A stretch of 64,000 bases of DNA from a plasmid, in the sequence record NZ_KX832927.1. The stretch is one strand, 5' to 3'. Below, one piece after another: positions 35,322-51,888 of this stretch (within the stretch, counting starts at the first letter, position 1; every line of letters begins with the position of its first letter). Below the pieces are notes generated by a model. It did not search any database, was not told where the DNA came from, and was given only the letters and a program-made list of their open reading frames with translations. The position numbers were made by a program, and so were the translations under genes.

Positions 35322-35417
35322 GGTGTTGCTCCTATGTAAAAAAACAGGGGCAACACCCGAAAACCGGGAGAAGCCCCCGGCTTGGGGTTAAGTAATGCCA
35401 TACGGCATAAGACTAGA

Positions 35418-35449
35418 TGCTGTTTGTTTTCGGAGACCAGCTATCTCAC
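35418..35449 (-). promoter_or_regulatory. conserved box, copy 8 (variant)
   Basis: TGCTGTTTGTTTTCGGAGACCAGCTATCTCAC. Confidence 0.45.
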
Positions 35450-35614
35450 CTATAGCCGCAGAGCGACTAAGATGATTCAAATATAGCTCACCTTTGCTAA
35501 ACAGAAAACGCTGTAACTGTCCATTTTGGGCACTTCGAGAGGTCAGGTTACAGATTGACCGCATTTATCCTTTCCAGTGCGTTTATCTGTACCTCAAATT
35601 TAGGAGTATCTCTA

Positions 35615-36256
35615 ATGGCAGAAGCACAAGTAGCACTGGACACAAACAACGACCGCAGCAACCACTACTCTCGCCCTGTTTTCAAGCAAGTTCTGAAAGT
35701 AAACAGCCTCCAAGCTCAGCGCGTCATGGAACGCAGCTTTGAGCGAGTTTCCAACTCCCTGTTCTCCATCGACGTGATCCTTCGCATCATCGGTGAGCAG
35801 GACGAAATCGACCAGGTTGAAACCGTCATCCTGGAACACATTTCCAAGGTCTCCGAAGACCTGGACAAAGCTACCGCCCAGCTCAACAAGCTGATGGAAG
35901 ACAACGGCATCGACATGATGCCCGGCTACACCAACCCGAATGAATACACCATCGAGATCAACTCTCCTCAGGTTGCTCAGTTTGCACACCTGATCCGCAA
36001 ACTGGATACCCTGATGGGGATCGTTGACACTCTCTGGCTGAACACCGTACTGACCAGCAAGCAGCGCACCGACGCCACTTACCAATGGCAGCAACGCCTC
36101 ATCAAGCTGGCCGGTCGAATCATCGGCATCGAGAAACGGGCTCGCATTTCCGCCCACAGCAAAGGCAAAGAAGGTGAAGTGGCCGAAGCCGCTCCGGAAT
36201 CTGCAACCGGCGACAAGGAAATCGCAGACGAAGCCGAGAAAACAAAAGCAGCATAA
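35615..36256 (+). CDS. hypothetical coiled-coil protein (plus strand, opposite to the backbone)
   Basis: ATG at 35615 with AGGAG RBS. Strong rho-independent terminator after the stop. Confidence 0.5.
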   Translation: MAEAQVALDTNNDRSNHYSRPVFKQVLKVNSLQAQRVMERSFERVSNSLFSIDVILRIIGEQDEIDQVETVILEHISKVSEDLDKATAQLNKLMEDNGIDMMPGYTNPNEYTIEINSPQVAQFAHLIRKLDTLMGIVDTLWLNTVLTSKQRTDATYQWQQRLIKLAGRIIGIEKRARISAHSKGKEGEVAEAAPESATGDKEIADEAEKTKAA

Positions 36257-36261
36257 CCCAG

Positions 36262-36296
36262 CCCAAACCTTTGCCCCTCGCCCGAGGGGCTTTTTT
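36262..36296 (+). terminator. rho-independent terminator (CCCCTCGCCCGAGGGGC + T8)
   Basis: GC hairpin followed by a T-run. Confidence 0.7.
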
Positions 36297-36378
36297 TTGT
36301 CTTTTATGGTTGCATTTTTTGATGCTGTGATATTATCGAAGTAAATCAGATTCAACTCAGGTAAGAACGGAGAACAAC

Positions 36379-37239
36379 ATGAAAAAGGCTTTAATCACCA
36401 CCGTGGCTCTGGCTGTAGCAGCTCTATCTGGCTGTGCATCCACCAGCAGTTACGAACCCACAGCGTACAAAACCAATCACAGTCGCGCTTACAACATCGC
36501 GGAGGCCGGTGGCCTGGTAACAGGCATCCAAGACGCTTCTGTTCCGCGTGACAAGCTGGAGCGTCTGACCGACACCAAAACGTTTGGGGCAGCCTACGTG
36601 CTGTCTGGCTACATGTCCCCTCAGCTCGGAATGACCGACTGGCAAGGTGGCTTGGTCAACCTTGCGAACTGGGCTATCGGCCCCAAACAGCATGGCGCTC
36701 GCAATAGCTTGATCGCTTGGATGCCTGCTAACGAAGCAGTTTCACCGGCAGACGCTCAGGCCAAATTTCTTTCACATGTGAAAGTTTCCATTGAGTCAGC
36801 GCTGACTGATTTGGGTGCCAATTTCACGCTTCTGTATGACAAAGATGGTCGCCTAACCTATCAGTTCTACAAGAATGAATGGGGTTGCCCGACGTGGGTG
36901 AACGGACAAAGTAAGGTAGCTGACATGTGTTCCGTTAAGGTGAAAATCGTGGAGCCTCGCCTAGGGTCAGCTCCTAATTTTGTCTCTGGCGTTCAAGGTA
37001 CAGCGTATGCCTTCACATCAGGCCATGAGACCGCATACAACTTTGTGAATGTCGGTAATGGGGCAGCAAGCCATGCTCCTCAGCAAGCGATCTACGCAGC
37101 TATTAGCAAACAGCTACCAGCTTGGGCCTACCTCTACCTTGCTCCAAAATCGGTTGAGCTGGATAATGGCGAAAAAGTTGCTTTCCCTTACCTTCTTGAT
37201 CAGGGAAAAGCAGAGTTATTTGTTTACCCAGAAGCGTAA
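36379..37239 (+). CDS. lipoprotein (signal peptide with LSGC lipobox), unknown function
   Basis: MKKALITTVALAVAALSGC lipobox. Own sigma70-like promoter (TTGCAT-17-TATTAT at about 36307-36336). RBS GGAGAACAAC. Confidence 0.6.
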   Translation: MKKALITTVALAVAALSGCASTSSYEPTAYKTNHSRAYNIAEAGGLVTGIQDASVPRDKLERLTDTKTFGAAYVLSGYMSPQLGMTDWQGGLVNLANWAIGPKQHGARNSLIAWMPANEAVSPADAQAKFLSHVKVSIESALTDLGANFTLLYDKDGRLTYQFYKNEWGCPTWVNGQSKVADMCSVKVKIVEPRLGSAPNFVSGVQGTAYAFTSGHETAYNFVNVGNGAASHAPQQAIYAAISKQLPAWAYLYLAPKSVELDNGEKVAFPYLLDQGKAELFVYPEA

Positions 37240-37306
37240 TCAATCTACATGAGAAAGGGGCCTTTCGGAGTATATAGTGAATTTTGTGTACTTCTGTTGG
37301 TGAGTG

Positions 37307-37345
37307 AGTGAATGCCCCATAAGCAAAGGCTTTTGGGGCATTTTT
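37307..37345 (+). terminator. rho-independent terminator after the lipoprotein gene
   Basis: GCCCCATAAGCAAAGGCTTTTGGGGC hairpin followed by ATTTTTAG. Confidence 0.55.
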
Positions 37346-37433
37346 AGTTTTTACACGGTATGTAATTTGGTGTGTAAAAATAGGAGCACTTGCTCCAAGG
37401 GCTCTGCCCTCTCGCCGCAAGCGGCGATTCACC

Positions 37434-37457
37434 CGAGGTATTTCACGACCAGCGATG
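37434..37457. repeat. 24-bp direct repeat, left copy (CGAGGTATTTCACGACCAGCGATG), flanking the integron
   Basis: 23 of 24 identity with the copy at 44301-44324. Confidence 0.6.
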
Positions 37458-37595
37458 TGATCCAGTGAGAGCACAGATACAGATAACTTCCTCGGGGATG
37501 CTTAAAAGTGAGCAATGGTCGTACCACCATACTCATACTGTAGCTGGAGGATGCCATAATAAATTGGCCGCCCGTAGCTTTGGTCGCAAAGCGAA

Positions 37596-37690
37596 CGTTC
37601 AGATTTCGGAATAACGCTTAGGTAACCGGCGCCGGAGCGCCAGCGGAGGGAACCAAAAGCGGCACGCTTTTGGCGTCCGGTTGACCGCCT
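37596..37690 (-). repeat. attC site of the GNAT cassette (last cassette)
   Basis: ATAACGC...GTTAC inverted-repeat structure. Confidence 0.55.
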
Positions 37691-37692
37691 TG

Positions 37693-38157
37693 TTACATGG
37701 TGATTCGATAGTATCCGCCATACTCTCCATCCTTAGAACCACTGTGCGTGGCCTGCCAACCCAATTTTTGGGCCACTCTCTTGCTGGCCACATTATCGTC
37801 CGCGATGAAGACCTGAACGGTATCGAGGTCGAACTCTGTGGATAGCCTTTCAACCGCCAACTCGCAAGCCTTGGCAGCTATCCCGTTTCCCCAAAACTCC
37901 GACCTGATGAAATAGCCGAAGTCGAAAACGCCATCTATCTGCTTAATACCGCAGAACCCGATAAATTCATCTTTATCAGCCTCTGCAATAGCAAAGCGAG
38001 TTGGGTTAGTGAGAGCACTCTCGAACCAAGAATTCGCCTCATCTTCTGTCAGGGCGCGACCCGGCCCAAGAAATCGCATGACCTCAGGATCTCGAAGCAT
38101 CGACATAACAGCCGTCTTATCTTTCTGTTGAAGATCCCTCAGCTTCACTGGAATCAT
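37693..38157 (-). CDS. GNAT-family N-acetyltransferase cassette
   Basis: Acetyl-CoA-binding motif region (WGNGIAAKA). 154 aa. Confidence 0.7.
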   Translation of the reverse strand: MIPVKLRDLQQKDKTAVMSMLRDPEVMRFLGPGRALTEDEANSWFESALTNPTRFAIAEADKDEFIGFCGIKQIDGVFDFGYFIRSEFWGNGIAAKACELAVERLSTEFDLDTVQVFIADDNVASKRVAQKLGWQATHSGSKDGEYGGYYRITM

Positions 38158-38241
38158 AAGGCCGACCTCACCATGTAACGCGAAGCTAAGCGGCGGCCCG
38201 TCAGGGACGTCCGGTGGACGGCCGTCAGGCCGGGAACGTAC

Positions 38242-38682
38242 TTAAGCGATTTGTTGTACGTTCCAAGACTCCCGCAGCTGGCCAATGACACCCGCGACCG
38301 TTTCAAACACCACCTCGTGAGAGCAACGGTAACGGTCCCTGGCCCAATCCAAAACAATAGGGCCTCGAATTTGTGACGCATGGTGGGGAAATGCCTCCAA
38401 GTACTCTTCAGTAAGGGCGGCTCCCCTGGGAAAAATGTGAAAATGAAGTCGAGACTGCTCTTCCCCAAACTGAGCGCAGTAGATGCGCAAGGGATTCACT
38501 GCTTCCTTTACCAGCGAAGTGACATTGGCCAATAGAGGGCCAAGGCTCTCGACCGATTGCCTTGGTAGAGCATCTAGCGATTCGACTGAAGCCAACGGAG
38601 AGACGATCAAATAGCCGGGCACAGCACAGGAATAGCAGTGCTCGACTAAAAAATCTTCTGATCGTCCAATCTCGAAGTTCAT
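38242..38682 (-). CDS. HIT-like fold protein cassette with degenerate histidine triad
   Basis: CAVPGYLIVSP and HFHIFPR resemble HIT/GalT-branch motifs. Confidence 0.45.
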   Translation of the reverse strand: MNFEIGRSEDFLVEHCYSCAVPGYLIVSPLASVESLDALPRQSVESLGPLLANVTSLVKEAVNPLRIYCAQFGEEQSRLHFHIFPRGAALTEEYLEAFPHHASQIRGPIVLDWARDRYRCSHEVVFETVAGVIGQLRESWNVQQIA

Positions 38683-38689
38683 CAGTACC

Positions 38690-38785
38690 TACTCGTACAA
38701 CGCTTGCAGCATGCGCGCCTGCGGAATGGAGCCAAAGGCGCAATGTAGTAGGCGTCGCCGTGCCTGCATTGGTTAAAACCTACCA
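38690..38785 (-). repeat. attC site; close paralogue of the attCs at 39315-39397 and 39755-39838
   Basis: Shared core CAGCATGCGCG...GGAATGGAG...GCAATGTAGTAG.CGTCGCCGTG. Confidence 0.6.
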
Positions 38786-39292
38786 TCAGGAACCTCCGGG
38801 GTTAGCCAGCCGCACCGCAACGTTGCTGTGTTGCGATCCAGTTTCATTCTCATGCTGTGAGCCGAAAAGATTGACCCACTGCCCCTGAACCAACACCAAC
38901 TCCCCGTTGCCAACACTGCTCCCATTGCTCCCATTGCTCCCATTGCTTGTAGTGTAATTGCCAGCATAGTTGAACTGGAATTGGCCGGACGAGCCCATGA
39001 TTGGCTTGAGTTCATAACCTATGGACAACTCACTGGAAGAGGCAAAGCCTTTATCCTTGCTCGATACGCTAACCCTTAAAAGTCTCGATTCTTCCAGAAA
39101 GCTTGGCAATAAATCAGAGGGTAAGCTATCCGATTGTGTAGCCTGACACTCACAATACCGAACCTCCAACACCAGCGTTTTATTGGCGAGATAGTCTTCA
39201 GGAGCCGAGTTGTCGGCAAGAGCAATGCTAGGAATCAAGGATAGAAAGAGCAGATTAACCCGCAGAGTAATTTGTGTTGCGATCCGTTGCAT
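38786..39292 (-). CDS. secreted protein cassette with GSNGSNGSS tandem repeat
   Basis: Signal peptide. The 9-bp tandem repeat ATTGCTCCC x3 at about 38921-38950 encodes the GSN repeats. Confidence 0.45.
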   Translation of the reverse strand: MQRIATQITLRVNLLFLSLIPSIALADNSAPEDYLANKTLVLEVRYCECQATQSDSLPSDLLPSFLEESRLLRVSVSSKDKGFASSSELSIGYELKPIMGSSGQFQFNYAGNYTTSNGSNGSNGSSVGNGELVLVQGQWVNLFGSQHENETGSQHSNVAVRLANPGGS

Positions 39293-39314
39293 GTGACCTC
39301 CTGTATTTACGTTT

Positions 39315-39397
39315 TAACGCCAGCCAGCATGCGCGGCTACGGAATGAAGGCGAAGCCGCAATGTAGTAGACGTCGCCGTGACTGGCCTTGTTATGCA
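39315..39397 (-). repeat. attC site
   Basis: Near-identical to 39755-39838. Confidence 0.6.
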
Positions 39398-39398
39398 T

Positions 39399-39731
39399 TT
39401 ACCATTGGACCAAAACGTCTTGAACTTTCAGTGTCTCCGAGTCGAATCCAATCGCCCAAAACACTTTGATATCACTTTTGCTGTACTTCGCCTTCCACAA
39501 CGTCAACTTGGACTCATTTCTCGGTAGGCAATCTATAGACTCGATGCTTTCCAACGCACCCATTTCGTTCTCTATATCCCGACACATATCCAGATACATG
39601 TCTTCAGTGATCTTCCCATCGTCATTCGGGTCCTTAGGCAGCGCCGACATTTCTTGGAGTTCCCGATAGCTCCTTCCGTCATGTAGCTTGATTAGTCGCT
39701 CAGCCAGTTCAGTTTCTCGGTCAGTGATCAC
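39399..39731 (-). CDS. hypothetical cassette protein (about 110 aa; GTG start after AGGAGG)
   Basis: The track ORF extends into the attC. The RBS AAGGAGG with a GTG at 39731 gives a cassette-contained gene. Confidence 0.4.
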   Translation of the reverse strand: MITDRETELAERLIKLHDGRSYRELQEMSALPKDPNDDGKITEDMYLDMCRDIENEMGALESIESIDCLPRNESKLTLWKAKYSKSDIKVFWAIGFDSETLKVQDVLVQW

Positions 39732-39754
39732 GTAACTTGTCCTCCTTGATTGCA

Positions 39755-39838
39755 TAACGCCAGCCAGCATGCGCGGCTACGGAATGGAGGCGAAGCCGCA
39801 ATGTAGTAGACGTCGCCGTGACTGGCCTTGTTAAAACC
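39755..39838 (-). repeat. attC site
   Basis: CATAACGCC...GGCCTTGTTA inverted cores. Confidence 0.6.
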
Positions 39839-39845
39839 TCTTGGG

Positions 39846-40247
39846 TCACTTGGAATAATGCCCCTCTACTGTAATTTGTACCGGAGTGCAGCCAACACGT
39901 CCGGCACCATGGCAGCCATAGCAAGTTTCCCTTTCCCCAGTTTTCGGGTTGTCGTAATACCCGACACCGGCGCATACCTCGCAAGGGCAGCCATTTGCTG
40001 AGAGCTTTTTATACTTAAGCCATGTTTGCTCAAGCAATGTGCTTGGTTCTGCCTTTCCCGTAACCACATCCAACAAATGTTGGTGCTCGATATTGATGGG
40101 ATTGAGAACACCTTGCTCTAAAGCCCTAATCCAACACCCATTCAGCTCCAGCTCCATATTTTCCTGATGGCTAAATTGTCGCTCGAGCCATGCGGGTAAC
40201 AGAAAATCCATCTCTCGATATTTTTTATGTTGTTGTTCATCGTTCAT
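39846..40247 (-). CDS. Cys-rich (CxxC...CxxC zinc-ribbon-like) hypothetical cassette protein
   Basis: GCPCEVCAG...CYGCHGAG motifs. Confidence 0.45.
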   Translation of the reverse strand: MNDEQQHKKYREMDFLLPAWLERQFSHQENMELELNGCWIRALEQGVLNPINIEHQHLLDVVTGKAEPSTLLEQTWLKYKKLSANGCPCEVCAGVGYYDNPKTGERETCYGCHGAGRVGCTPVQITVEGHYSK

Positions 40248-40261
40248 GGTATCACCAGGGC

Positions 40262-40340
40262 ATACCCCGTTTTAACGCCTGGGCTCAGCGGCCGATTTGG
40301 AGGCGCACCGCGCCGGAAAACCGGTCCGCTGGAGCCCCTG
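40262..40340 (-). repeat. attC site of the DinB-like cassette
   Basis: TTAACGCC...CTGGTTATA cores. Confidence 0.5.
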
Positions 40341-40341
40341 G

Positions 40342-40884
40342 TTATACATTGTTCTGACTCGGGATCAGTGCTAGCAAATCCGTTACCCCAACGTCTTCGC
40401 CAGATTGCGAAAGTAGCGTAGTTACCTGCCCCCGATGATGAGTTTGATGATTGAAGAAATGATAGATCAAGGAGGAAAATCGTTTGGTGGCGGGCACACC
40501 CTTGGTATTCTGATAGCTGAGAATAAAATCTAAATCACTATCAGTGAGCCCTGAAATCCATTTGATGATTTTCTCATCTAGCCACTTTCGGTGGCTATAC
40601 AACTCATCAAGATCTTCGAAAATTATTTGGTTGAGGTTTTTGGGAGCCGCTAGCTCAGTGATTTCACGTAGTGGTTCAGCGCTTGCTGGTTGTGCAGCAA
40701 ACCTCTTTAGCCAAATCGTATCCCCAACAACGATATGGTTTAGCGTACCCAATATTGACCCGAAGAAGGCTCTTCGATCTTCTAAAAGAGCCGATTTGCT
40801 CAGGTTGCCTGCGGCGCCATATACCCTCTCATTCATCCACCGGTTGTATTCGGCCATCAGCTCAAAATGTTGTTTCAGGCTCAT
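40342..40884 (-). CDS. DinB/YfiT-family (DinB_2, metal-dependent) protein cassette
   Basis: His-rich triad HxxxD...H...H (FFNHQTHHRG). Confidence 0.6.
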   Translation of the reverse strand: MSLKQHFELMAEYNRWMNERVYGAAGNLSKSALLEDRRAFFGSILGTLNHIVVGDTIWLKRFAAQPASAEPLREITELAAPKNLNQIIFEDLDELYSHRKWLDEKIIKWISGLTDSDLDFILSYQNTKGVPATKRFSSLIYHFFNHQTHHRGQVTTLLSQSGEDVGVTDLLALIPSQNNV

Positions 40885-40904
40885 CTGACTGAGGTCCTTC
40901 TACT

Positions 40905-40995
40905 GTATAACGCCTCACATCACCGGGAGCGAAAAGCAAAGCGAGGGACGAGCGGTACTTTTTGCTCTCCGAGTGCATGTGATTGTTATGTAGTC
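40905..40995 (-). repeat. attC site of the Ere-like cassette
   Basis: TATAACGCC...GATTGTTAT cores. Confidence 0.55.
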
Positions 40996-41008
40996 CAATT
41001 TCCGATGC

Positions 41009-42232
41009 CTATAATTTCACTAATTTATCTTGGTTGGCGCTAGGAACGCAGAATATAGCGTCAAAGGCATCACTCACATTCGTCTCAACAGATGAGCTCT
41101 GCGATCTAACTCGGCTAGCGCCTTTAACGTCGTCCGACAATATTAAACATGAGCCCGCCACACCCCTAGCACTCATAATATGCTGTTCCACACTGTCTCT
41201 TTGGATTTTATCAGCGTCTGTGGGCTCCACCGAAAAGCCTAACGGACTGTCAGGCGAAGGAAACTGCATCTCCGGCACAGTACCCCCTAGATGCGTTGCT
41301 CCAATGGCACGGTAATCTTTCCTCCGATACGCAAGTTGCTGGCCCATAGGAACAGCCGTAAGTTCTCCAGAAAAGGAAACTGAAGTCTTCTGGATATGGT
41401 TGTTATGCGCAAGTAGAAGTATCTTCAAATTTGGATCTGCGTGAAGAAATCTCTCAACAGTGGTAGCTGTGAACATCTCACGAACGGAAGTGTCACCATC
41501 GAGTGAAGTGCCATCAAAGAGCATCTTCATGGTGCGCAATGTTTCGAGCGTATGTTCAATCGAACAGACACACTCCGACGCCCTTTGAAACAGCTCCTTT
41601 CCACCTCGCTGGACTAGAATTGGTTCCAATCCAGACAACCGCAACTTTAACCGACTAATCCGGGAGAAGGCTTGATCCTGTTTAGCGGTACCCAGTTCAC
41701 CCCATTGCGCGGATGAAATCACGGGGGAATCGCCACATATGGATTCCAAAGACTGGATTAACGCATCGACGTCCGGCTTCAAAATGGGATCCAGTAAATC
41801 AATAGCCGCGGACAATCTCTGTAAGTCGTCAAGTGGGTTCAGCGTATTGGGCAAATCAACGCCAACCACCATAATGCTTTTTCCAGTCTCTAAAAGATAA
41901 GATTTGAGCCAAGTCAGCACCGACCCATACAGAGCGAAGGTCAATGGGTTCGTGATTTCCTCTAGCTTATCCGTGCTCGCTGAAGATTTGAGCCATTCGG
42001 AGATCCGGTTACCCTGAACCGCCCCGCACTCCAGCCCAATTGCATTAAACTCGTGCATCTCTACAAAGTATCGGATGAAACTGGCTCTGGCCAAGGAAAA
42101 CTCAGAAACAAAGTGAGCCCCTTCGCCAATCCCTATCACTCTGGCATATTTCGCCATCGAAGATAGATCTTCAAGCTCACTGAAATCTACATTACAAGGC
42201 TGTAAGAGCGTTCTGATTGTTCTGTACGTCAT
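41009..42232 (-). CDS. erythromycin-esterase-family (Ere-like) hydrolase cassette, divergent
   Basis: VIGIGEGAHFVSEF (compare EreA/EreB LGEATHG) and LLAHNNH (AHNxH) motifs. 407 aa matches the family size. Confidence 0.65.
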   Translation of the reverse strand: MTYRTIRTLLQPCNVDFSELEDLSSMAKYARVIGIGEGAHFVSEFSLARASFIRYFVEMHEFNAIGLECGAVQGNRISEWLKSSASTDKLEEITNPLTFALYGSVLTWLKSYLLETGKSIMVVGVDLPNTLNPLDDLQRLSAAIDLLDPILKPDVDALIQSLESICGDSPVISSAQWGELGTAKQDQAFSRISRLKLRLSGLEPILVQRGGKELFQRASECVCSIEHTLETLRTMKMLFDGTSLDGDTSVREMFTATTVERFLHADPNLKILLLAHNNHIQKTSVSFSGELTAVPMGQQLAYRRKDYRAIGATHLGGTVPEMQFPSPDSPLGFSVEPTDADKIQRDSVEQHIMSARGVAGSCLILSDDVKGASRVRSQSSSVETNVSDAFDAIFCVPSANQDKLVKL

Positions 42233-42287
42233 ATGTTCAACTCAATATCTTCATTATGATGGATCTGCTGTATCTAGTTCCTAGGTC

Positions 42288-42410
42288 AGGATACATAACG
42301 CCCTGTTAAGGTGTGAGCAACGCAATACCGAAGCCTCCACACACCACCTTAATCACTTAAATCAACGCATAGTGAAAATGCCACGCGTTGCGAATCACTC
42401 TTGAACAGTT
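42288..42410 (-). repeat. attC site of the dfrA cassette (about 120 bp)
   Basis: ACATAACGCC...GTTTGTTAGCCC cores. Confidence 0.55.
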
Positions 42411-42412
42411 TG

Positions 42413-42886
42413 TTAGCCCTTTGTCCAAATTTGGTACGTGTAATCAATATTTGAACTGAAACTTTGCTCAAATGTTTGCTTGAAACTCTGTGGAACTGAA
42501 GGGAAAAACACGTCGCCAGAGATGTGCTTATGAATCACTGAAAGATGGATAACATCTGCTTGTTCGATTAATGCTTTGTAAATTTCACCACCACCAGAAA
42601 CAAAGACATGTGTTGTCGTGTTGTCTAAGTAAGCTAATGCCGATTCAACGCTTGTGAAATAAACAACATCAGGATCATTCGAGGCCATTTCAGTACGAGT
42701 AACCACAGCATATTTCCTATTCGGAAGTTTACCCATTGAGTCGAAAGTTTTACGACCGACTAAAAGCCAATGATTGTAAGTCATAGCTTTGAACAGGAGC
42801 TGCTCACCATATACATGCCAAGGTATATCCAATCCAGAGCCAATTACTCCATTCTCGGAAACAGCTGCCATAATGGATATTTTCAT
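42413..42886 (-). CDS. dfrA: trimethoprim-resistant dihydrofolate reductase, DfrA family (first cassette)
   Basis: 157 aa. [23 protein letters not shown]...[22 protein letters not shown]...VSGGGEIY...DYTYQIW.KG matches type A Dfr proteins; about 60-65% to dfrA1/dfrA6 as recalled by eye. Confidence 0.85.
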
Positions 42887-43247
42887 TTTTCCTCCTGAGG
42901 GCTAACAGCTTATTAGTTTGCTTTCTTATTAAACCGCAACACCATCACCCAGTCCAATACTGCTTCACAACCTGAATAACCTCGATTTTTCAGATCATTA
43001 CCCCTCCATCTCAGGGGGCTTTTGAGCTTTTGGTTCTGTGAAAAGTGTGCACGCGGGATATTTATGCACGTTTTTGCACGTTAAATCCAGTGGGTCGAAT
43101 TTTTCCCATGCTGAAACAGATACCTACAGAGATGCATTGTGAAAAGTGAGCAGGGCCGTGCAAATTAAGCCGCAAGAATTTTGGTGTTTTTGGGTGTTTT
43201 TTATTATAACTGTACGTACATACAGCATTCAGCCACGGAGGGCGAGC
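42887..43247. promoter_or_regulatory. attI recombination site and Pc/Pint promoter region between the first cassette and intI
   Basis: Cassette boundary core GTTAGCC (reverse complement at 42900-42906). Divergent arrangement typical of integrons. Confidence 0.5.
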
Positions 43248-44216
43248 GTGTCGAAATCACCGTTTCTACAATCGGTCCGCACAGAAATTAGGACAAAGCA
43301 GTACAGCTACCGAACCGAGAAGTCCTATCTTTACTGGGTTCGTCAGTTCATCCTTTTCAATGACAAGAAGCACCCAAAAGTCATGGGTAATCACGAAATT
43401 GAGCGTTTCCTGAATCACCTCGCCGTCAATCGGGGAGTCAGTCCGGGCACTCAAAATCAGGCGCTATGCGCGATTATTTTTGTCTACAAGCATGTGCTGA
43501 AGCGGGAGATTGAAAACCTACAGTACAAGATGACGAAAACGCCTCGACGCATGCCAACCGTTCTGAGTCCCGATGAAGTTGCTTCTATTCTTCAAAACAT
43601 GGATGCAGAGTATTGGCTCATCACTGCGCTTCTTTATGGATGCGGTTTGAGAATCAACGAAGCTCTTTCGCTTCGCGTGAAAGACATCGACCTAAAAAGC
43701 CGCAGTTTGCTCGTATTCAACGGTAAGGGACGAAAAGATCGATACACACTGATTCCAGGCAATCTAAGAGAAAACATGGAGCGACAATTCGCCCATGTCA
43801 GGGCTGTACATGAGTCCGATCTGGCCGATGGATTCGGGCTTACGTCAGTGCCGGCCTCACTTCACAAGAAGTATGGACCGGCCATGAAGGACTTTGGTTG
43901 GCAGTACCTGTTCCCATCCGTAACAAGATGCGTTCATCCCATCGCTGGTTATGTGTGCCGCCACCATCTTCATCATTCATCGTACTCGCGGCGATTGAGG
44001 CAGGCCGTTCTGGCCACGGGAATCACCAAGCGTGTGACGGCTCATACCTTTCGGCATGCCTTTGCGACAGAGTTATTGAGATCGGGGAGCGATATCAGGA
44101 CGGTCCAGGAAATTCTTGGGCATAGCGACATTCGAACGACAGAAATCTACACGCATGTCATTGGCGATCGACGTGCTGGAACCGTCAGCCCTTTTGATCG
44201 TTTGCCAAGTTCTTGA
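43248..44216 (+). CDS. intI: integron integrase (IntI-type tyrosine recombinase)
   Basis: IntI-specific extra segment plus box I ALLYGCGLRINEALSLRVKDID and box II HTFRHAFATELLRSGSDIRTVQEILGHSDIRTTEIYTHV. GTG start after GGAGG gives 322 aa. Confidence 0.85.
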   Translation: MSKSPFLQSVRTEIRTKQYSYRTEKSYLYWVRQFILFNDKKHPKVMGNHEIERFLNHLAVNRGVSPGTQNQALCAIIFVYKHVLKREIENLQYKMTKTPRRMPTVLSPDEVASILQNMDAEYWLITALLYGCGLRINEALSLRVKDIDLKSRSLLVFNGKGRKDRYTLIPGNLRENMERQFAHVRAVHESDLADGFGLTSVPASLHKKYGPAMKDFGWQYLFPSVTRCVHPIAGYVCRHHLHHSSYSRRLRQAVLATGITKRVTAHTFRHAFATELLRSGSDIRTVQEILGHSDIRTTEIYTHVIGDRRAGTVSPFDRLPSS

Positions 44217-44300
44217 TGGGGCGTTGCTTACCCGTTTAAGGGGCGTAAAGCCTGGAATTGGGAGTGCGGCGAATGTCCGCTTTTGTTTATGAGCTGATTT

Positions 44301-44324
44301 CGAGGTATTTGACGACCAGCGATG
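44301..44324. repeat. 24-bp direct repeat, right copy (CGAGGTATTTGACGACCAGCGATG)
   Basis: Matches 37434-37457 with 1 mismatch. Confidence 0.6.
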
Positions 44325-44395
44325 ATCGTTTAAGATGAAGTTGCGGTACAGGGAGAGGTCCCGATGGCCGCGACCGGCGATGAGGGGGCGTGCCA

Positions 44396-46570
44396 TTAAT
44401 GGCTTACCCCCGAATCCCTCTCTTGCAGCAGCTCCCTCAAGAAACTCGCCCGCCTGGTGGCATTGCTTACCGATTTTACGATGGACGCAAAATCACTAGC
44501 CTGCCCGACAATATGTATCTCTGCCTCGGCACGGGTAATCGCCGTGTAAAGCCACGCACGGTCTGAGATACGCCCCGTCTGGACTGCCACGATGATTCTC
44601 GGGAACTGGCTCCCTTGAGCCTTGTGGAGCGTGATTCCGTAGCCAAGCTCCATGCAATCGAAGACTTCATCCGTAATTGAAATGGCTTCGCCGGTATCCA
44701 GCGTCACGACACCAAATGTTTCCTGGCCGTCCTTGGTGTCGCGCTCTGTTGAGGATAATACGCCAAGAGACCCATTCTGAATGCCGATGTTGTACTTGTT
44801 CCTGGTGAAGAGGATCGGGTCGCCCACTCTGATATCGAGGAAGAATTCATCGCCATGCAGTCTAAACTGCAAGCACTCCCCATCGGGATTGATCAGCTTT
44901 TGGCACTCACGGTTCACCTCGCCAACTAGAGCCTTGGTGGCTCCGATGATCTGAGTGTTATAGGGTGACTCCGCATACAAGGATTTGCACTTATCGACCA
45001 TCTTCTGCGGAGGCGTCTCGTGGAACGTGATTGCGCCAACCGATAACGCAGGAGGCACCTCACCCCGATTGATGGTGGCCGAGTATTCCGGGATGCCCGT
45101 TGAGTCTTCCTGGCGTTTGACGATGTTCAACTCAACCGTAGCGATTGCACCGGACTCAACGATGTCTGAGAGGACTTTGCCGCAGCCGATGGCTGGTAGC
45201 TGGTTCGGATCGCCGGTCAGGATGATGCGTACCGAAGGATCGAGGTGCGTAACAATCCGATACATGGTCGGCAGGTCGGTCATACTGGCTTCGTCGATGA
45301 CCAGGAGATGCTGCGCCTGATCCAGTGACGGCGAGATCGGCTCTTCCCGCAACAGGCGAGCAATTGTCATGGTGAAGAATCCGATGCTCTCGTGCAGTCG
45401 CATAGCAGCTCGCCCCGACAGAGCGACGGCATGAACCTGATAGCCTAGTGCGGCATAGGCTTTGAGCACGGCACGAAGGACCGTGGTTTTACCCGTACCG
45501 GCACCACCCGTAATGCAGGACACCGCATTGGTAAGGCTCAACTCGACCGCTTGGACCTGCTGCTCGGTCAGGTCGTAGGGCAACTCCTGAACGGCCTCGG
45601 TGAGCGCCTTGAAGACGGATTCATCTTCATTCTTGATGGCGGCCAGGGCCTTGAGCCGCTTCGCAACGACCGACTCCATCATGATTTGGGCGGTAGGGTG
45701 GTAGGTGCCGGTCTCTGGCCTGAGAATGAACTGGCCGTTGCGATAACCGCTGGCGAACGCCTCTGCGACCAGAGCTTTATCGCCCAGAAGCTTGGTCACC
45801 TCGGGCCTGAGCGCCGGATGGGAGGCGTAGGTGTGCCCCTTTTCTACCTCTTTTCGTATCGCGCTTTCTAACGCAGCTGCGAGCCGCACCGGTGCCGATT
45901 TATCCATGCCCATTTTTTCAGCAATCGCATCGATATCGGGAAAAGGCATTCCGAATCCGAGCAATGCGTAGGGATTGGTCTTGAGTACCTCAACGGTTCG
46001 ATTATCGTGGTACTTTAGAATGCGTTGCTGGATGCTCAGCGGCACTCCCAGAGAAGCCAGCCAATTCGCATGCGCAAGGTTTTTGTACTTGGCGTAGCCG
46101 TTGTATAGCGCGGTTACTGAAACCTCGCTAAGAACCTCCCTGAGACGGCCTCTGTGCTCGGAGGTATTGGATTGGAGCATGGGGTGCAGGTCACTGCCAA
46201 AAACGTTCCAGAGGGCGCGTGCTTTGGCCTCACCGATACCGGTGAACTCCTTTTCATTGGCAATGAAACGGATCAGCGCCTCGCCCGTTTCCGGCAGCGT
46301 GCACTCCATCTCAGCTGGGGCGTCATACAAATGTTGCTGAAGCTTATAATCGCCTGCCTGAACGGTCTCCAGCGTCCTTACGCCACGCACTCGCCATTGC
46401 TGACCAACGGACGGCTTGATAGGCAGGGACTGGTTTTCGCATCGGATGCTGACGATGTATTTGCCCGAGTTGATCTTGTAACTGTCAGTCTTGAGGGGAA
46501 CGCCCGTGAAGATCGTGTATTTATAGCCGTTATGCTGGCAGCTGGTGACACGGAAATACTCTTCATGCAT
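44396..46570 (-). CDS. RecD2-like (AAA_30 / UvrD_C_2) DNA helicase with N-terminal HhH region
   Basis: Walker A GGAGTGKTT. HhH FTGIGEAKARAL. Motif QAVELSLT...LVIDEASM. Confidence 0.7.
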   Translation of the reverse strand: MHEEYFRVTSCQHNGYKYTIFTGVPLKTDSYKINSGKYIVSIRCENQSLPIKPSVGQQWRVRGVRTLETVQAGDYKLQQHLYDAPAEMECTLPETGEALIRFIANEKEFTGIGEAKARALWNVFGSDLHPMLQSNTSEHRGRLREVLSEVSVTALYNGYAKYKNLAHANWLASLGVPLSIQQRILKYHDNRTVEVLKTNPYALLGFGMPFPDIDAIAEKMGMDKSAPVRLAAALESAIRKEVEKGHTYASHPALRPEVTKLLGDKALVAEAFASGYRNGQFILRPETGTYHPTAQIMMESVVAKRLKALAAIKNEDESVFKALTEAVQELPYDLTEQQVQAVELSLTNAVSCITGGAGTGKTTVLRAVLKAYAALGYQVHAVALSGRAAMRLHESIGFFTMTIARLLREEPISPSLDQAQHLLVIDEASMTDLPTMYRIVTHLDPSVRIILTGDPNQLPAIGCGKVLSDIVESGAIATVELNIVKRQEDSTGIPEYSATINRGEVPPALSVGAITFHETPPQKMVDKCKSLYAESPYNTQIIGATKALVGEVNRECQKLINPDGECLQFRLHGDEFFLDIRVGDPILFTRNKYNIGIQNGSLGVLSSTERDTKDGQETFGVVTLDTGEAISITDEVFDCMELGYGITLHKAQGSQFPRIIVAVQTGRISDRAWLYTAITRAEAEIHIVGQASDFASIVKSVSNATRRASFLRELLQERDSGVSH

Positions 46571-47006
46571 CGGGCGCTACTCCGAACTCTGTGAGGACTT
46601 CGGACAGTTCACCGTAACGTTTTAGCTTGGCTTCGAGGGTTGCCACCCGGGCCTTTAGTTCAATGTTTTCCTGCTCCAGCACTGAGAGCCTTCTCGATTC
46701 CATGGCTCTTTTGTTAACGCTGGGATCATAGCGTTTGGGTTCTGATCGCTGGGCCTTGGCGGTTTCGGTCAGTTCTGGCAGAACACCCCGATAACGCAGG
46801 TTCTGCTCCAGATTCTCCAATGCCGTTTTGATGGCCGGATTCTGGCGCAACGCGCTCTTTCCGATGCCTATGGCTTTGGCCACTTCGCCACGGTTTAACT
46901 GGCCCCGATGGAGGATCTGCTTAAAATCGTCATCCGTTTGGGTGGCCACCCAGCTCTGGAAGGCACTCAGGTTCTGACGTGCTCTTTCCTGACCATTACT
47001 CATCAA
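46563..47006 (-). CDS. HTH DNA-binding protein with coiled-coil C-terminus
   Basis: LNRGEVAKAIGIGKSALRQN helix-turn-helix. Heptad-like leucines. Confidence 0.45.
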   Translation of the reverse strand: MMSNGQERARQNLSAFQSWVATQTDDDFKQILHRGQLNRGEVAKAIGIGKSALRQNPAIKTALENLEQNLRYRGVLPELTETAKAQRSEPKRYDPSVNKRAMESRRLSVLEQENIELKARVATLEAKLKRYGELSEVLTEFGVAPDA

Positions 47007-47664
47007 TTTCCCCCAGGATCTTCTTGAGCCCGGTCAGGAAGCCACGAGGCAGGATTTCCACACCATACTCATCCTTCACCTGACCCAATTCGTTCGCCTG
47101 GAACCCGAGCTTTTCGAGCCACTCATCGGTGCAGACGGTTTGCAGGGCTTTAATCTCGTTGTCAGAGCAGACTCCCTTCAATGAGGGCAGCAGCTCCACA
47201 CTGGCGTCTGACTGGGGTTCACTGTAAACCGTAGGGCGCTTGTCGATGACGATCTGGGTTTGGTTCTTGAGCATGTTGGCTTCGCTCCTGTAGCGATCCC
47301 GCTCACGGATGATTTGCCCAAAAAGGGCTCGCACAGCTGTATCATCAATCCGCTCAAGCAACTGATGGTCCTGAGTTGGTCTCTTGGCAGGCCCTACCGG
47401 TGGCTTCTTGGTGGTGGTCTTCGCCTTAGCGGCCCACGCTTCAATCAGGTCCCGGTAATGCTTGTTCGCGGTGGCACGAATCGACTGATAGCCAACGCCG
47501 TCATTTTCCTCTGAGACACGCCCTATGGTGGTAATGGAGAAGTCCCGGGCACCGGATTCGTAGTAGTCCTTCAGGGTCTGGTTGAGCGTATCCAGGGACG
47601 ACTGTGTTTTAGCGGTTTTACCGTCCTTGAGGGACTCCAGAACCGCATTGGTATCGATGTTCAT
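46996..47664 (-). CDS. hypothetical protein (222 aa)
   Basis: Overlapping stop/start with both neighbours. Confidence 0.45.
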   Translation of the reverse strand: MNIDTNAVLESLKDGKTAKTQSSLDTLNQTLKDYYESGARDFSITTIGRVSEENDGVGYQSIRATANKHYRDLIEAWAAKAKTTTKKPPVGPAKRPTQDHQLLERIDDTAVRALFGQIIRERDRYRSEANMLKNQTQIVIDKRPTVYSEPQSDASVELLPSLKGVCSDNEIKALQTVCTDEWLEKLGFQANELGQVKDEYGVEILPRGFLTGLKKILGEIDE

Positions 47665-50282
47665 TCTTCCACCTCCAGGGCGGGAATCCGCGCCACGGAT
47701 TCAGTAGGCAAGGTGATTGGGGCTATCTTCTTCACGGCGTCAAACCCGGATTTCAGCAGCCGATCGTCTTTCAGGAATTCCTGCGCCTCAATGTAATTGG
47801 ACGCGATCCGGTAGCCCTCAAGCCGATCTTCGGGGGCGGCGATTTTGGCCATCTTGCGCATGAGCGCGTTACCCGCAATCAACTGGGTTTGTTCGTCCAT
47901 TTCAAGGAAAACGGGCTTGTACCCGGAACGGGCCATCATGCGGCTCAAGGCGTTGGTACGCTTGGCTATCGCGGGCGTCTTGCGCAGATCATCATGCAGA
48001 TCGGGGTGGAACTCAGCGTCCTCGCACAGCAGTGCCAGGTGCAGTAACTCCGAGTCAGTTTCGACGAACTTCATACTATATTTGAGGTCTTCATCAGAGC
48101 CGACCGCGATCAGCTTTTGCCCGTCGTCGTCCTCTTCACGCCCATTCTCGATCTGGATCACCCGATTGATCAGGTTGAAAATTGCGATGCAATCCTTGGC
48201 GTACTCATCCGCCTCCACCCTCTGCTTCTCGTAGCGCCGTTCTATCGCCTGAAGTTCGTTGTGCTTGAGAAACACTGCACCGGTTTCCTCAGCGATGAAC
48301 AGCTCATCCTTTAGTGCTTCTAGCTGACCCTCTAGGTGAACAGACAGCTCGGCCGCCTGGTGCGCCTTGTAGCTCACCTGGTTGAACGCAGAATTGAGAG
48401 CCGGAAGATAGGTGGCATCGGTAATGTGCCAGCGACAGCGGGGACAGTTTTCCGGCCCGAGGGGGACCGGGCCATAAACTCTTGAATGTGCGCTTTCTGA
48501 ACCCCTAACTATCGGGCCACCGTTCCAGCACCCGCCTACGGTGGACAGCTCATCTGAGCGCACGGTGTTGCCCCCAACCAGGCACAAGCCCGTGGCTCGT
48601 TCCTCCCAGCCGATGGGATTCCGGTTGGCAAGCACGCTCTCGACGGAATTGTGCTGGTCGTTGTGAAAGGCAGCCCGGAGCGGGATCTGTCTCATTTCCG
48701 CGTCCACCAGGAAGTTTCGGAGCGAGCCTTCACCTCGTTCGGACAGAACTGCGTGTGCCTCCTTCATTTTGTCGGCCATCACGGAGGGCGTGATCTTGTT
48801 GTAATAGATCGTCATCAGAAGCCGTGTGTGGCCGGCCAGAAGCTTCGCGATCACCGGCAAGGGGAGGTCGGTGTCCATGGTGTAGCAGGTGATCAAGGAG
48901 ACCCGAAGGCTGTGAAGCGGGTAGTCCGTTGCCACCTTAGCGGCTTCCGTACCTTCAAAGTCCTCGCCGTAGTCTTTCACAAACCGAAGGCGATCCCCGT
49001 TGGCCATCGTTTGGCCCGACTGGAAGACATCCTCTTCCAGTTTGGACAACAGGCGATACCACGAACTAGCCAATGAGGTGTAGGTAATTGGAAAAGCAGA
49101 ATTACGCTCCCTGAATAAAAAGGCAAACTCGCCCATTTGTTTCAATTGTTGCTTGGATTTAGCGACGCCAATATGGCTACGCTTAAGCTCTGTGCCACTG
49201 ACCAGTCGGTTAATCGGGTTGTATTTTTCCTGCCAACTGCGGAGCTTTTCCAGCCAATACAGCAGCTCTTCGTGCTGCCAAGGGATGGTGTATCCCCGCT
49301 GAAGTTCATCCTTGTTTTGATCGGCGGTTTTGTTGGTGGACACGTAGAGGCCGGTCGAGTACCCCTCGGTCATGGAGTCATATATGCGGCGGAAGACGCC
49401 TTTCTCATAAGGTCGCTTGGGCGTTCCATACTTGAAGGGGTGCTTGGTGTTTTCCACCCATTGCCCACCTTCATAGCGCCAGGTATCGGCTTCGCCGGAG
49501 TCCAGAAACCTCACCTGAAAAGAGCGCAGGGGTAGGTGCAGCTTGGTAAACAGGAACATCGCCATGACCGGCGACCAGATTTCGTGGACCTCAACTCTTT
49601 CTCCCTTCCTGGGCACAATCCGAGTCCGGAAAACGCAATCCGGATCATCAGGGTCGATGACCTCGGGCGGCACTTCCACCCATGCCCCATTGCCAGACTG
49701 AAGGTGATCGATGGCCCATTGCCAGTCCCGGAAATGGTGGCCTACCCACGGCGTTTTATTGCCGGGGTCGTCGGTTGGATAGGGGCAGAGGATGTGCCTC
49801 AGTTGCTGGATGTAGCGATAGGGCAAGGGGCTGTGGACGGTTTCGGTGTTTGATGTGTTATTCGTGATTTTCTCGAACGGATTCGGGAATAGGGGCCGCC
49901 CAACGCCGTTATCGTCCTCGGCGCTCAAATGGTGCTTGAGGATGTAATTGCATAAATCGACCGTGGACGAAATGTGTTTAGAGTTTTTAGTAATCGATCC
50001 ACTGCTAACCAGAAAGGCCTCAAACTCTTCCGTGGACACCTTGTGACCACCCGGATGGCCCTTGAACATCGTGGCCACGTCAACGGCGTACGGGGCTTTA
50101 GCGTTCAGATAGTTAAAGAAGTGTCTTAAGCATTTTAATCGCAGATCAATGCCTACGTTTTGCTCCGCAAGCCATTCGGCGGCGTACTGCTGCCATTGCA
50201 GCCAGTTGTGCCCCAGTTCCTTAGTCACCCACCCCAGCGTCAGATCCGTGGTGTAGCCTTTACTCGTCCTTCTTTTTGTCAT
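47661..50282 (-). CDS. large tyrosine-recombinase-like protein (873 aa) with extended middle and C-terminal regions
   Basis: Integrase-like N-terminal core-binding region. Catalytic-type R...HxxR...Y pattern (LRVSLI...AGHTRLLMTIYY). CxxC pair (CPRCRWH). Confidence 0.55.
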   Translation of the reverse strand: MTKRRTSKGYTTDLTLGWVTKELGHNWLQWQQYAAEWLAEQNVGIDLRLKCLRHFFNYLNAKAPYAVDVATMFKGHPGGHKVSTEEFEAFLVSSGSITKNSKHISSTVDLCNYILKHHLSAEDDNGVGRPLFPNPFEKITNNTSNTETVHSPLPYRYIQQLRHILCPYPTDDPGNKTPWVGHHFRDWQWAIDHLQSGNGAWVEVPPEVIDPDDPDCVFRTRIVPRKGERVEVHEIWSPVMAMFLFTKLHLPLRSFQVRFLDSGEADTWRYEGGQWVENTKHPFKYGTPKRPYEKGVFRRIYDSMTEGYSTGLYVSTNKTADQNKDELQRGYTIPWQHEELLYWLEKLRSWQEKYNPINRLVSGTELKRSHIGVAKSKQQLKQMGEFAFLFRERNSAFPITYTSLASSWYRLLSKLEEDVFQSGQTMANGDRLRFVKDYGEDFEGTEAAKVATDYPLHSLRVSLITCYTMDTDLPLPVIAKLLAGHTRLLMTIYYNKITPSVMADKMKEAHAVLSERGEGSLRNFLVDAEMRQIPLRAAFHNDQHNSVESVLANRNPIGWEERATGLCLVGGNTVRSDELSTVGGCWNGGPIVRGSESAHSRVYGPVPLGPENCPRCRWHITDATYLPALNSAFNQVSYKAHQAAELSVHLEGQLEALKDELFIAEETGAVFLKHNELQAIERRYEKQRVEADEYAKDCIAIFNLINRVIQIENGREEDDDGQKLIAVGSDEDLKYSMKFVETDSELLHLALLCEDAEFHPDLHDDLRKTPAIAKRTNALSRMMARSGYKPVFLEMDEQTQLIAGNALMRKMAKIAAPEDRLEGYRIASNYIEAQEFLKDDRLLKSGFDAVKKIAPITLPTESVARIPALEVEE

Positions 50283-51751
50283 GATTTACCTTTGCCCAAT
50301 CGTGGATTCTTGCCCGTAAAGTGGCCGTTTGGATCAATGTCTTCAAAACCGTGTTCTGCAAGCGTCTTCCAATCGAAAGATGCGGGGGGCTTTTCCTTAT
50401 CCGATCCCAACTGAAGTTGTTGTGTTGCCTGGGACAGCGCTTCCGAGACTTTCGCGCTGGAGGGCATGGTGTAAGGAACCTGAGACTCCAGGCTTGCGTG
50501 ATGCAGGCACTTTTTGCGAATAAGCGGATCGACTCCGGCATCCGTCAATCGACGGCCATAGTTGTGGCGATGGCCGTGTGGATCTAACCCTACGGTCTTG
50601 TCGGGTTCGAGACCAATTCGTCTTAACCCAGCCGCATAATTTTGGTTGAAGGAATTGTAGGTATAGGGATTGCCCAGATAGCGAGAGTCGAAGCTAACAA
50701 ACGCATAGGGATGATGGCACTCCACCGATGCACGGAAAACCAAATACTGTCGCCACAGCGACATGAATACTTGGGCAAACTCTTGCGGGAAGAAATGCGC
50801 CTCCAGGTAGCCATCCTTGTCATCTAGGGTTTTGGATTTCCAGCCGAGATGTGGGGTTTTTTGCATCTCCTGGCGCGGGATGCGTGCGTATTTTTCTTGA
50901 AGGTACGCCTTGCGGGTTTTTATCCCTTTTCGGGACTTCCAGCCTTCAGGTGCCTTACCTTCTATCTCGTTGTAGATCCTCACGATTGCCCGATCTGGAT
51001 CGGAGGGGTCTTCAAAGACATCGGTGACCCAGAGTAACAGTGCTTCGCTCACCCTCAATCCGGTCGCGTGCATCAGGAGCACGATAAGCTTGTCCCGCAG
51101 CGCAACTCGCGGGTCTTTGGCTCCTCCCAGGCCCTTCATATAGAAGTCTTCAAACTTTCCCGTAGGGAAGGCGATGGCATCGTCATTGGTTTTTGCCAGA
51201 GGTGTTCTGCCCTTGATGCTGCGGGCTCTTTTTACCGTGGTACTAACCGAGGTGTCTTTAATGTGCCCGAGGAAATCATTCTGGTTACGCCTAAACCAAG
51301 CGGCGTACTGAATGCGTTCCTCATGTCGAGTGGCTGTGCGCAAGGTATTGAGAGGCTTGCCCAGACCTTTGTCCGAGAGCCAATTGGTGAAATTCGTCAG
51401 ATTGCTGATGTGTCGATGTATCGTGCCATTACTGGCCGGTATCCAATACAGGCCAGAGGGGTCCAATCCATCTTCACCGATGGTCCCGCTGTAGAGCCGT
51501 CGGACGAAGCCCGCGAACAACGCTTCGGGTTCATCGAACATGCCTTCGTTGGCATCCATGAACTCGATGAGGAGTCTAATCGACTGAATATGGTTGGTGA
51601 TTGTTGAAAATGAGATGCCATTTAGGTGAAGGCTAAGCACATAATCTGTGACCGACCCCAAAACCCCTTGGTCGGTCAGAATGACCGGGATCTCTGTGGT
51701 TACTCCACTGTTATCCTGAACTACCTTGGCTGTAACCTTCGTTGCAAACAT
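50279..51751 (-). CDS. tyrosine-recombinase-like protein (490 aa)
   Basis: Box I GLRVSEALLLW. Box II HGHRHNYGRRL. C-terminal LHHASLESQVPY. 4-bp overlap with the downstream 873 aa gene. Confidence 0.6.
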   Translation of the reverse strand: MFATKVTAKVVQDNSGVTTEIPVILTDQGVLGSVTDYVLSLHLNGISFSTITNHIQSIRLLIEFMDANEGMFDEPEALFAGFVRRLYSGTIGEDGLDPSGLYWIPASNGTIHRHISNLTNFTNWLSDKGLGKPLNTLRTATRHEERIQYAAWFRRNQNDFLGHIKDTSVSTTVKRARSIKGRTPLAKTNDDAIAFPTGKFEDFYMKGLGGAKDPRVALRDKLIVLLMHATGLRVSEALLLWVTDVFEDPSDPDRAIVRIYNEIEGKAPEGWKSRKGIKTRKAYLQEKYARIPRQEMQKTPHLGWKSKTLDDKDGYLEAHFFPQEFAQVFMSLWRQYLVFRASVECHHPYAFVSFDSRYLGNPYTYNSFNQNYAAGLRRIGLEPDKTVGLDPHGHRHNYGRRLTDAGVDPLIRKKCLHHASLESQVPYTMPSSAKVSEALSQATQQLQLGSDKEKPPASFDWKTLAEHGFEDIDPNGHFTGKNPRLGKGKS

Positions 51752-51811
51752 CCTTGAATCCTACACAAATTACACATTATTTACTATATATATAGTGCAG
51801 TCTTCAGGAAA

Positions 51812-51850
51812 AAGAAACCCCCAATTAAGGGGGTTTTTATCAAATTTACA
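51812..51850 (-). terminator. rho-independent terminator downstream of traN
   Basis: On the minus strand: AAACCCCCTTAATTGGGGGTTT hairpin followed by CTTTTTCC. Confidence 0.6.
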
Positions 51851-51888
51851 CAGTTCTATGTACTATAGAGAACGAAAGGCCCCTTTTT

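Follow-up and report, generated by a model that had tools for sequence, protein, structure and literature searches.

The window analysed here is a stretch of 64,000 nucleotides from a plasmid (sequence record NZ_KX832927.1), in which an integron containing a gene of the erythromycin esterase (Ere) family sits inside an island inserted in an IncC backbone. The ere-like gene occupies 41009..42232 on the minus strand. Its open reading frame (ORF) is intact: it runs from an ATG to one terminal stop, and its product of 407 amino acids (aa) is a type I (EreA/EreC-like) protein of the erythromycin esterase family, to which an earlier note on this DNA had assigned it. The two hallmark Ere motifs described in that note are both present, GEGAHFVSEF at aa 36-45 and AHNNH at aa 275-279; the first, however, does not have the GExxHG form then assigned to it but reads GEGAH-F, that is, GExxH followed by Phe, and in the alignment GExxHG turns out to be the form of the Bacillus homologue, with GENTHGS. 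The sequence itself was already on record, the protein being identical to WP_071547859.1, deposited as 'erythromycin esterase family protein', and a near variant has been provisionally named.

The gene lies in a complete cassette of 1388 bp (40911..42298, minus strand), read from the sequence as a 66-nt leader, the ORF and an attC, and bounded by G↓TT crossover points (arrows mark the crossover). Its attC (81 bp, 40911..40991, minus strand) has R'' = ACATAAC and R' = G↓TTATAC, reading ACATAAC...GGCG↓TTATAC on the minus strand from 40991 to 40911, and it shows what is expected of an integron cassette: an inverse core RYYYAAC, a core G↓TTRRRY and an imperfect hairpin, which on the bottom strand is long and has a folding free energy of -18.1 kcal/mol (z -3.4; 1 of 200 shuffles folds as well). 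At its 5' edge the cassette abuts the end of another attC (...CAGGGCG↓TTATGT at 42299/42298, minus strand), belonging to a dfrA46-like cassette for a trimethoprim-resistant dihydrofolate reductase (DHFR; cassette 42299..42905, minus strand, with an attC of about 120 bp and boundaries read from the sequence). The DHFR ORF (42413..42886) scores 289 bits with the NCBIfam model trim_DfrA1_like, above its cut-off of 250, and AMRFinder calls it DfrA46 at 98.73% identity in an identical plasmid region. The ere-like cassette is thus the second of the array, directly after a dfrA cassette, as had been noticed. The first is preceded by an attI crossover, GCTG↓TTAGCCC at 42905/42906 (read from the sequence), and by an integron integrase oriented divergently from the array (WP_008169685.1; 43248..44216, plus strand; TIGR02249 401.7 bits, above the cut-off of 265). 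This integrase is not of class 1, because its score with the IntI1 equivalog model, 285.7 bits, lies below the cut-off of 435. The ends of the dfrA attC presumably resemble Vibrio VCR repeats; when that attC was folded as one hairpin, no significant structure was found (z -0.67).

Membership of the family is clear. The protein matches the Pfam model PF05139 (Erythro_esteras) over profile positions 1-356 of 358 with 69.8 bits (E=4.5e-19; gathering cut-off 26.4), which bears out the family assigned to it earlier. With the NCBIfam EreA model (NF000208) it aligns end to end at 580.1 bits (E=2.1e-174), below the curated cut-off of 750, and it also stays below the cut-offs for EreB (NF000209, 111.5 bits against 750) and EreD (NF000516, 124.4 against 800). 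The closest solved structure by sequence is that of EreC, 6xcq (phmmer, E=2.5e-161), with a global identity of 61.0%; the ere(A)/EreC gene of a class 1 integron with the order arr-2-ere-aadA1-cmlA5 gives 61.5%, and two clusters of the EreA/EreC group (P0022 and P0024) that are 92.6% identical to EreC give 61-62%. Under the nomenclature rule for macrolide-lincosamide-streptogramin genes, reportedly laid down by Roberts and colleagues in 1999, a gene of a given class shares at least 80% aa identity with a member of that class. By that rule and by the NF000208 score, the gene falls outside the ere(A) class on sequence; membership in the ere(A), ere(B) and ere(D) classes was considered and rejected, the hidden Markov model (HMM) scores lying under the cut-offs and the identity being 61%. 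Also rejected was the notion, prompted by the PDB hit to EreC, that the protein is closer to EreC than to EreA, since EreC itself shares 92-99% identity with the ere(A) group, against 61% with the present protein. As EreA and EreC have more than 90% of their residues in common (PMC7979712), the gene lies at the same distance from the whole ere(A) group.

Compared with EreC, EreA and EreA2 (PDB 6XCQ and 6XCS), the protein has practically the same length (407 against 408 aa), is colinear with a single one-residue gap and, like them, is encoded by an integron cassette (e.g. arr-2-ereC-aadA1-cmlA). It differs from them in sharing only 61-62% of its residues, in having another attC, and in forming a separate branch with marine and environmental sequences in a neighbour-joining tree of 88 homologues. 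A phylogeny with the known Ere enzymes could be drawn in this way for the EreA/EreC group; for EreB, EreD and BcR136 the comparison was made through HMM and fold scores instead. The branch, which is placed inside the clade containing EreA and EreC but apart from them, comprises the present protein, a Klebsiella pneumoniae variant (97%), a variant on plasmid pALTS31 (94%), a protein from a SAR324 metagenome-assembled genome (MAG; 84%) and an uncultured gammaproteobacterial protein (78%). The similarity to EreB and EreD is remote, about as far as that of EreA itself. The view that the protein 'differs substantially from EreA/EreB' therefore needs splitting: towards EreB and EreD only remote similarity is left, whereas towards the EreA/EreC group the difference is that of a full-length colinear relative at 61.5% identity. 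EreB and EreD, the type II enzymes, belong to the same Pfam family and have the same catalytic His/Glu/His, but carry Lys instead of Arg at the transition-state position and have a narrower spectrum of 14- and 15-membered macrolides (PMC7979712). With Arg at this position (R251), and with a score nearer to EreA/C (580 bits) than to EreB (111) or EreD (124), the protein is by its sequence of the type I archetype.

In EreC, catalysis is assigned to five residues: the base H50, E47 for its orientation, E78 and H289 for positioning the water, and R261 for stabilising the intermediate (Zielinski et al., PMC7979712). With a numbering offset of 10, the alignment maps E47, H50, E78, R261 and H289 of EreC onto E37, H40, E68, R251 and H279, which are invariant in 88 of the 88 aligned homologues, and the protein violates no column that 90% or more of them conserve. 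Like EreA, it has Leu at position 111. The best conserved parts are the block AHNNH.QKT.VSFSGELTAVPMGQ (87% identical) and the Gly/Pro-rich lid TVPEMQFPSP.SPLGFSV (70%), and divergence is concentrated in the helical middle (aa 130-240, 52% identity). The pocket of EreC is lined by 38 residues (PMC7979712, Fig. 6). An AlphaFold2 model of the protein, built on an alignment of 45 sequences, has the two-lobed Ere fold, a mean predicted local distance difference test (pLDDT) of 94.3 and a predicted template modelling (TM) score of 0.93, and it superposes on both EreC crystal forms (6xcq and 6xcs) over 407-408 columns with Foldseek TM scores of 0.97-0.98 and a root mean square deviation of 1.3-1.7 Å. 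Furthermore, the ORF is intact in 7 of 7 contexts, and the ratio of nonsynonymous to synonymous substitution rates (dN/dS) is 0.19-0.37 for pairs with dS of at least 0.04, which points to purifying selection. Family, predicted fold, catalytic residues and selection all support the reading that this is most likely a working type I macrolide esterase.

What weighs against that reading concerns the substrate of the enzyme and its expression. As regards the substrate, 39% of the residues differ from those of the nearest tested enzyme, and fold alone is no proof: the Bacillus cereus proteins BcR135 and BcR136 (PDB 2QGM, 3B55 and 2RAD; 'succinoglycan biosynthesis protein') share the fold (TM 0.71-0.73 with the model) and the N-terminal GE..H motif at 16-18% identity, and the description given of them is not that of macrolide esterases but of enzymes for small esters (PMC7979712). 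Many close homologues belong to chromosomal integrons of environmental bacteria (SAR324, Desulfovibrionales), for which selection by antibiotics is not evident; Law et al. 2021 list their variant, ereA4b, as putative only (PMC8098119), and our literature search on this cassette lineage found no functional test of macrolide hydrolysis or of the minimum inhibitory concentration (MIC). These points would fit an Ere-fold hydrolase whose substrate is not a clinical macrolide, for instance another lactone or ester made in marine or anaerobic communities, and which would confer no useful macrolide resistance and be found in resistance integrons by hitch-hiking. Such an enzyme would also be in keeping with the closest relatives beyond the clinical copies, which are in environmental arrays and at one non-cassette chromosomal locus, and with the non-resistance cassettes around the gene in the window. 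We nevertheless consider it quite improbable. Conservation covers every catalytic residue, the Arg typical of type I and the lid over the substrate, the predicted chain superposes on EreC throughout, and 61% identity is well within the range over which function is kept in this family, because EreB and EreD have nearly the same macrolide spectrum at 44.7% identity and EreA and EreB both hydrolyse erythromycin at 25% (PMC7979712). In addition, two class 1 integrons have taken up the cassette independently of each other, beside cassettes of aadA, dfrA and blaOXA, a point that brings us to its distribution.

When five other loci carrying the gene were compared with the window by BLAST, the matches were confined to 40904/40909-42301/42310, and junction alignments of six contexts show identity from GCG↓TTATGT at the 5' end to GGCG↓TT at the 3' end, an attC that is nearly invariant, and unrelated sequence outside. 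Exact boundaries shared by six arrays are the signature of a cassette moved by integron integrases. Two of these contexts are class 1 integrons: In1810, on the IncP-1beta plasmid pALTS31 (MN366359) from biosolids, with the order intI1-dfrA48-ere-aadA1-blaOXA-2-qacEdelta1-sul1, and an integron of K. pneumoniae with intI1-phd/parE-ere and, downstream, qacEdelta1-sul1-ISCR1. Two short metagenome contigs (L005 and L006) have the same phd/parE-ere order, continuing into an aadA-like gene. The other three loci are arrays in Halomonas sp. SpR8 (98%), Marinobacter fuscus NH169-3 (97%) and the SAR324 MAG. The cassette of In1810, named 'ereA4b', is 95.4% identical in nucleotides over the whole cassette, has identical boundaries and encodes a protein 93.9% identical to ours; like ours, it directly follows a dfrA cassette (dfrA48), but it differs by 25 aa and in its setting, a class 1 integron on an IncP-1 plasmid as opposed to the integron of a gamma-mobile-trio island on IncC. 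The earlier argument that a place behind dfrA marks the gene as a resistance determinant is weak in the present array, where the next six cassettes are not for resistance; its better ground is the company of recognised resistance cassettes in class 1 integrons, in dfrA48-ere-aadA1-blaOXA-2 and in phd/parE-ere-aadA. The cassette is rare on the whole: among the 72,556 plasmids of PLSDB, 5 have it, and it was absent from the 5,426 complete Escherichia coli genomes searched, although the protein has one accession from E. coli. The assembly collection has the exact protein in 100 indexed blocks, always in the gamma-mobile-trio island and at several chromosomal as well as plasmid sites. The order of the array varies: one variant (L097) begins with an ORF of 218 aa followed by ere, and in a further one the 218-aa ORF is followed by dfrA and ere (L098), with a group II intron further down.

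The second set of points concerns expression, where the case is at its weakest. A standard sigma-70 scan of the cassette strand from intI to ere found no site, and the sole candidate from a relaxed scan is weak, CTGAAT-18-TATAAT at 43232-43203, with 9 of 12 consensus positions matched. The start codon of ere has a weak Shine-Dalgarno sequence, that of dfrA being AGGAGG. An internal promoter has been reported for ere(A) in a class 2 integron; one was looked for in the 66-nt leader of our cassette and none was found. The esterase could thus be competent and yet silent, or too weakly expressed, in this array, as a stored cassette rather than an acting determinant. The array is of the chromosomal-integron, sedentary type, with many non-resistance cassettes, and selection for expression is doubtful because Enterobacterales and Providencia already tolerate erythromycin (PMC11721406, for Enterobacteria). 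Silence of this kind seems improbable to us all the same: the gene is second in the array and close to attI, the reshuffled arrays L097 and L098 keep it near the front, its leader and start region are conserved in the six contexts, and purifying selection has been maintained.

Our preferred explanation, to which we give a probability of roughly three in four, is that the ORF encodes a functional, metal-independent type I macrolide esterase on a mobile cassette of a marine gammaproteobacterial lineage. By analogy with EreC, H40, held by E37, would deprotonate a water positioned with E68 and H279; the resulting hydroxide would attack the carbonyl of the lactone in 14-membered macrolides, and probably also in certain macrolides with 15 or 16 members; R251 would stabilise the tetrahedral intermediate while the Gly/Pro-rich lid (aa ~316-337) closes over the substrate, and the ring-opened drug would no longer bind the ribosome. 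The promoterless cassette would be moved by IntI-mediated recombination of its attC with attI or attC and, here, be transcribed as the second cassette from an integron promoter. Its lineage would come from marine or saline Gammaproteobacteria (Marinobacter, Halomonas and relatives) and would have entered clinical Enterobacterales twice, once with the gamma-mobile-trio island and its integron, on IncC plasmids and Providencia chromosomes, and once in class 1 integrons. We infer macrolide hydrolysis, its substrate range, the expression of the cassette and a resistance phenotype, as distinct from the family membership, fold, conserved catalytic residues, purifying selection, cassette anatomy, mobility and distribution shown above. 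The related integron cassettes ereA2 and ereA3 raise the erythromycin MIC of E. coli more than 16-fold and that of azithromycin only 2-fold (PMC11721406), and effects of this order are to be expected if our enzyme behaves alike.

A marine or saline gammaproteobacterial source, in which the gene would differ from ereA and ereC, is our best inference, and it is drawn from four observations: the attC family, the integrase match, a near-identical Marinobacter copy and a non-cassette gammaproteobacterial homologue. The attC sites at 38699-38775, 39315-39393 and 39755-39833 belong to one repeat family (84-99% alike), and the same family flanks the ere cassette in M. fuscus NH169-3 (L014 633-712 and 2596-2672). 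At the nucleotide level the integrase region is 99.5-99.6% identical to its counterparts in Vibrio plasmids and in a Marinobacter plasmid; the matching Marinobacter sequence holds a class A beta-lactamase gene and qnrVC1 as well. Because of the shared attC family and this integrase match, the integron platform looks like an escaped chromosomal integron of the Marinobacter type. Between the copies of K. pneumoniae (L004 8001-9224) and M. fuscus (L014 774-1997) there is one nonsynonymous change and dS=0; a single nonsynonymous and no synonymous change would therefore mean a very recent transfer of the cassette between a marine chromosomal array and a clinical integron. A homologue 78% identical to ours (L012 3141-4361) lies outside any cassette, 35 bp downstream of a DUF2007 gene and beside glyS, with no attC after the gene; its host, an uncultured gammaproteobacterium, has a GlyS ~64% identical to the Wenzhouxiangella protein, and the locus might point to the sort of genome that supplied the gene of the cassette. 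A bolder reading, that a distinct ere class (less than 80% identical to every named Ere) has been caught emerging from marine Gammaproteobacteria into clinical bacteria, possibly with a different substrate range, such as a useful activity on azithromycin or on 16-membered veterinary macrolides, drugs on which ereA2 and ereA3 have little effect, we regard as doubtful; a different range might follow from the ~39% divergence from EreA/EreC.

A separate observation concerns a Desulfovibrionales MAG (L008 5067-9018), in which a 67%-identical Ere stands among resistance-like cassettes adjoining an integrase fragment; the run consists of a LinB-like nucleotidyltransferase, the Ere, an AadA-like protein and a protein with a transpeptidase-fold domain, and it is unusual to find several homologues of antibiotic-modifying enzymes in a row in the array of an environmental anaerobe.

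To return to the cassette of the window, 'candidate new macrolide esterase', as the earlier note called it, is still its right status, the family, the divergence (including a score below the EreA cut-off) and the cassette nature having been confirmed: it is a divergent, intact and mobile Ere-family cassette that very probably encodes a type I macrolide esterase. Some older records of members of its protein cluster are labelled 'EreA family', and Law et al. 2021 listed the pALTS31 variant, 'ereA4b', as a putative cassette for resistance that AMRFinder does not identify, and gave no phenotype (PMC8098119). A literature search for 'ereA4/ereA4b' as a gene name finds that paper only, and one for other names under which it might have been published (EreE, ereF) or for tests of it found nothing relevant; in the passages searched, papers on the Providencia resistome report the neighbouring dfrA6 and do not mention the ere gene. 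Likewise, in the PLSDB annotation of the carrier plasmids, AMRFinderPlus and RGI miss ere, yet call the neighbouring dfrA. If active, the enzyme would thus be a mobile macrolide-inactivating determinant that routine resistome pipelines (AMRFinderPlus, RGI, the NCBIfam EreA model) do not report, and this on a cassette already present on conjugative IncC and IncP-1 plasmids, in K. pneumoniae class 1 integrons and, in several copies, in clinical Providencia. Mechanistically there is nothing new, the fold, the catalytic residues and the mode of mobility being those of ereA and ereC; the main value of the finding lies in resistance surveillance and in the unusually clear record that it gives of a cassette passing from the chromosomal integrons of marine bacteria (Marinobacter, Halomonas) into clinical integrons.

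The element that mobilises the entire integron may prove more interesting than the ere gene. This is a gamma-mobile-trio island of 14.6 kb (37254..51883, limits by BLAST of locus L103 against the window), whose content, annotated from identical plasmids, is gmtY, VPA1269, gmtX, VPA1267, a RecD-like helicase of 724 aa and the non-class-1 integron, with its integrase and 8 cassettes. Clinical Providencia carry islands with 99.95% identity to it on IncC plasmids (pPROV224-1, pCHS4.1-1 and others), and the left flank in the window, 27000-37260, is 100% identical to the IncC backbone. The island is inserted in no fewer than 5 places: in IncC plasmids it stands after traN and beside traG, and Providencia chromosomes have it at several sites, sometimes in at least 2 copies per replicon; a literature search for gamma-mobile-trio and integron together found no paper on such an island carrying an integron. 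To the right of the island (51877-64000 against L103 667-12010), the IncC region from traN to traC is inverted relative to pPROV224-1 at 98.2-98.4% identity, and the left flank and island match a Providencia rettgeri RB151 'chromosome' record at 99.97%. The orientation of the flanks and the RB151 match suggest either that an inversion took place between copies of the island or that a segment of IncC became integrated in a chromosome.

Downstream of ere, six further cassettes fill 37600..40910 on the minus strand, each gene being followed by an attC ending in GCGTTA (Pfam and intergenic sequence). They include, by Pfam, a DinB ORF (40342..40884), a DUF413 ORF (39846..40247) and a GNAT ORF (37693..38157), all on the minus strand; the remaining ones encode two hypothetical proteins and one HIT-like protein. 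The start of an ORF of 123 aa (39399-39770) lies inside the preceding attC, and its first codons, ATGCTGGCTGGCGTTATG, contain the GCG↓TTA core; this makes the second Met its probable true start, in line with the genes of 110 aa called in related loci. The integrase likewise has two candidate starts, a GTG at 43146 in its longest ORF (356 aa) and the GTG at 43248 annotated in identical plasmids (322 aa), and the best promoter-like TATAAT (43208-43203) falls between them, within 43146-43247.

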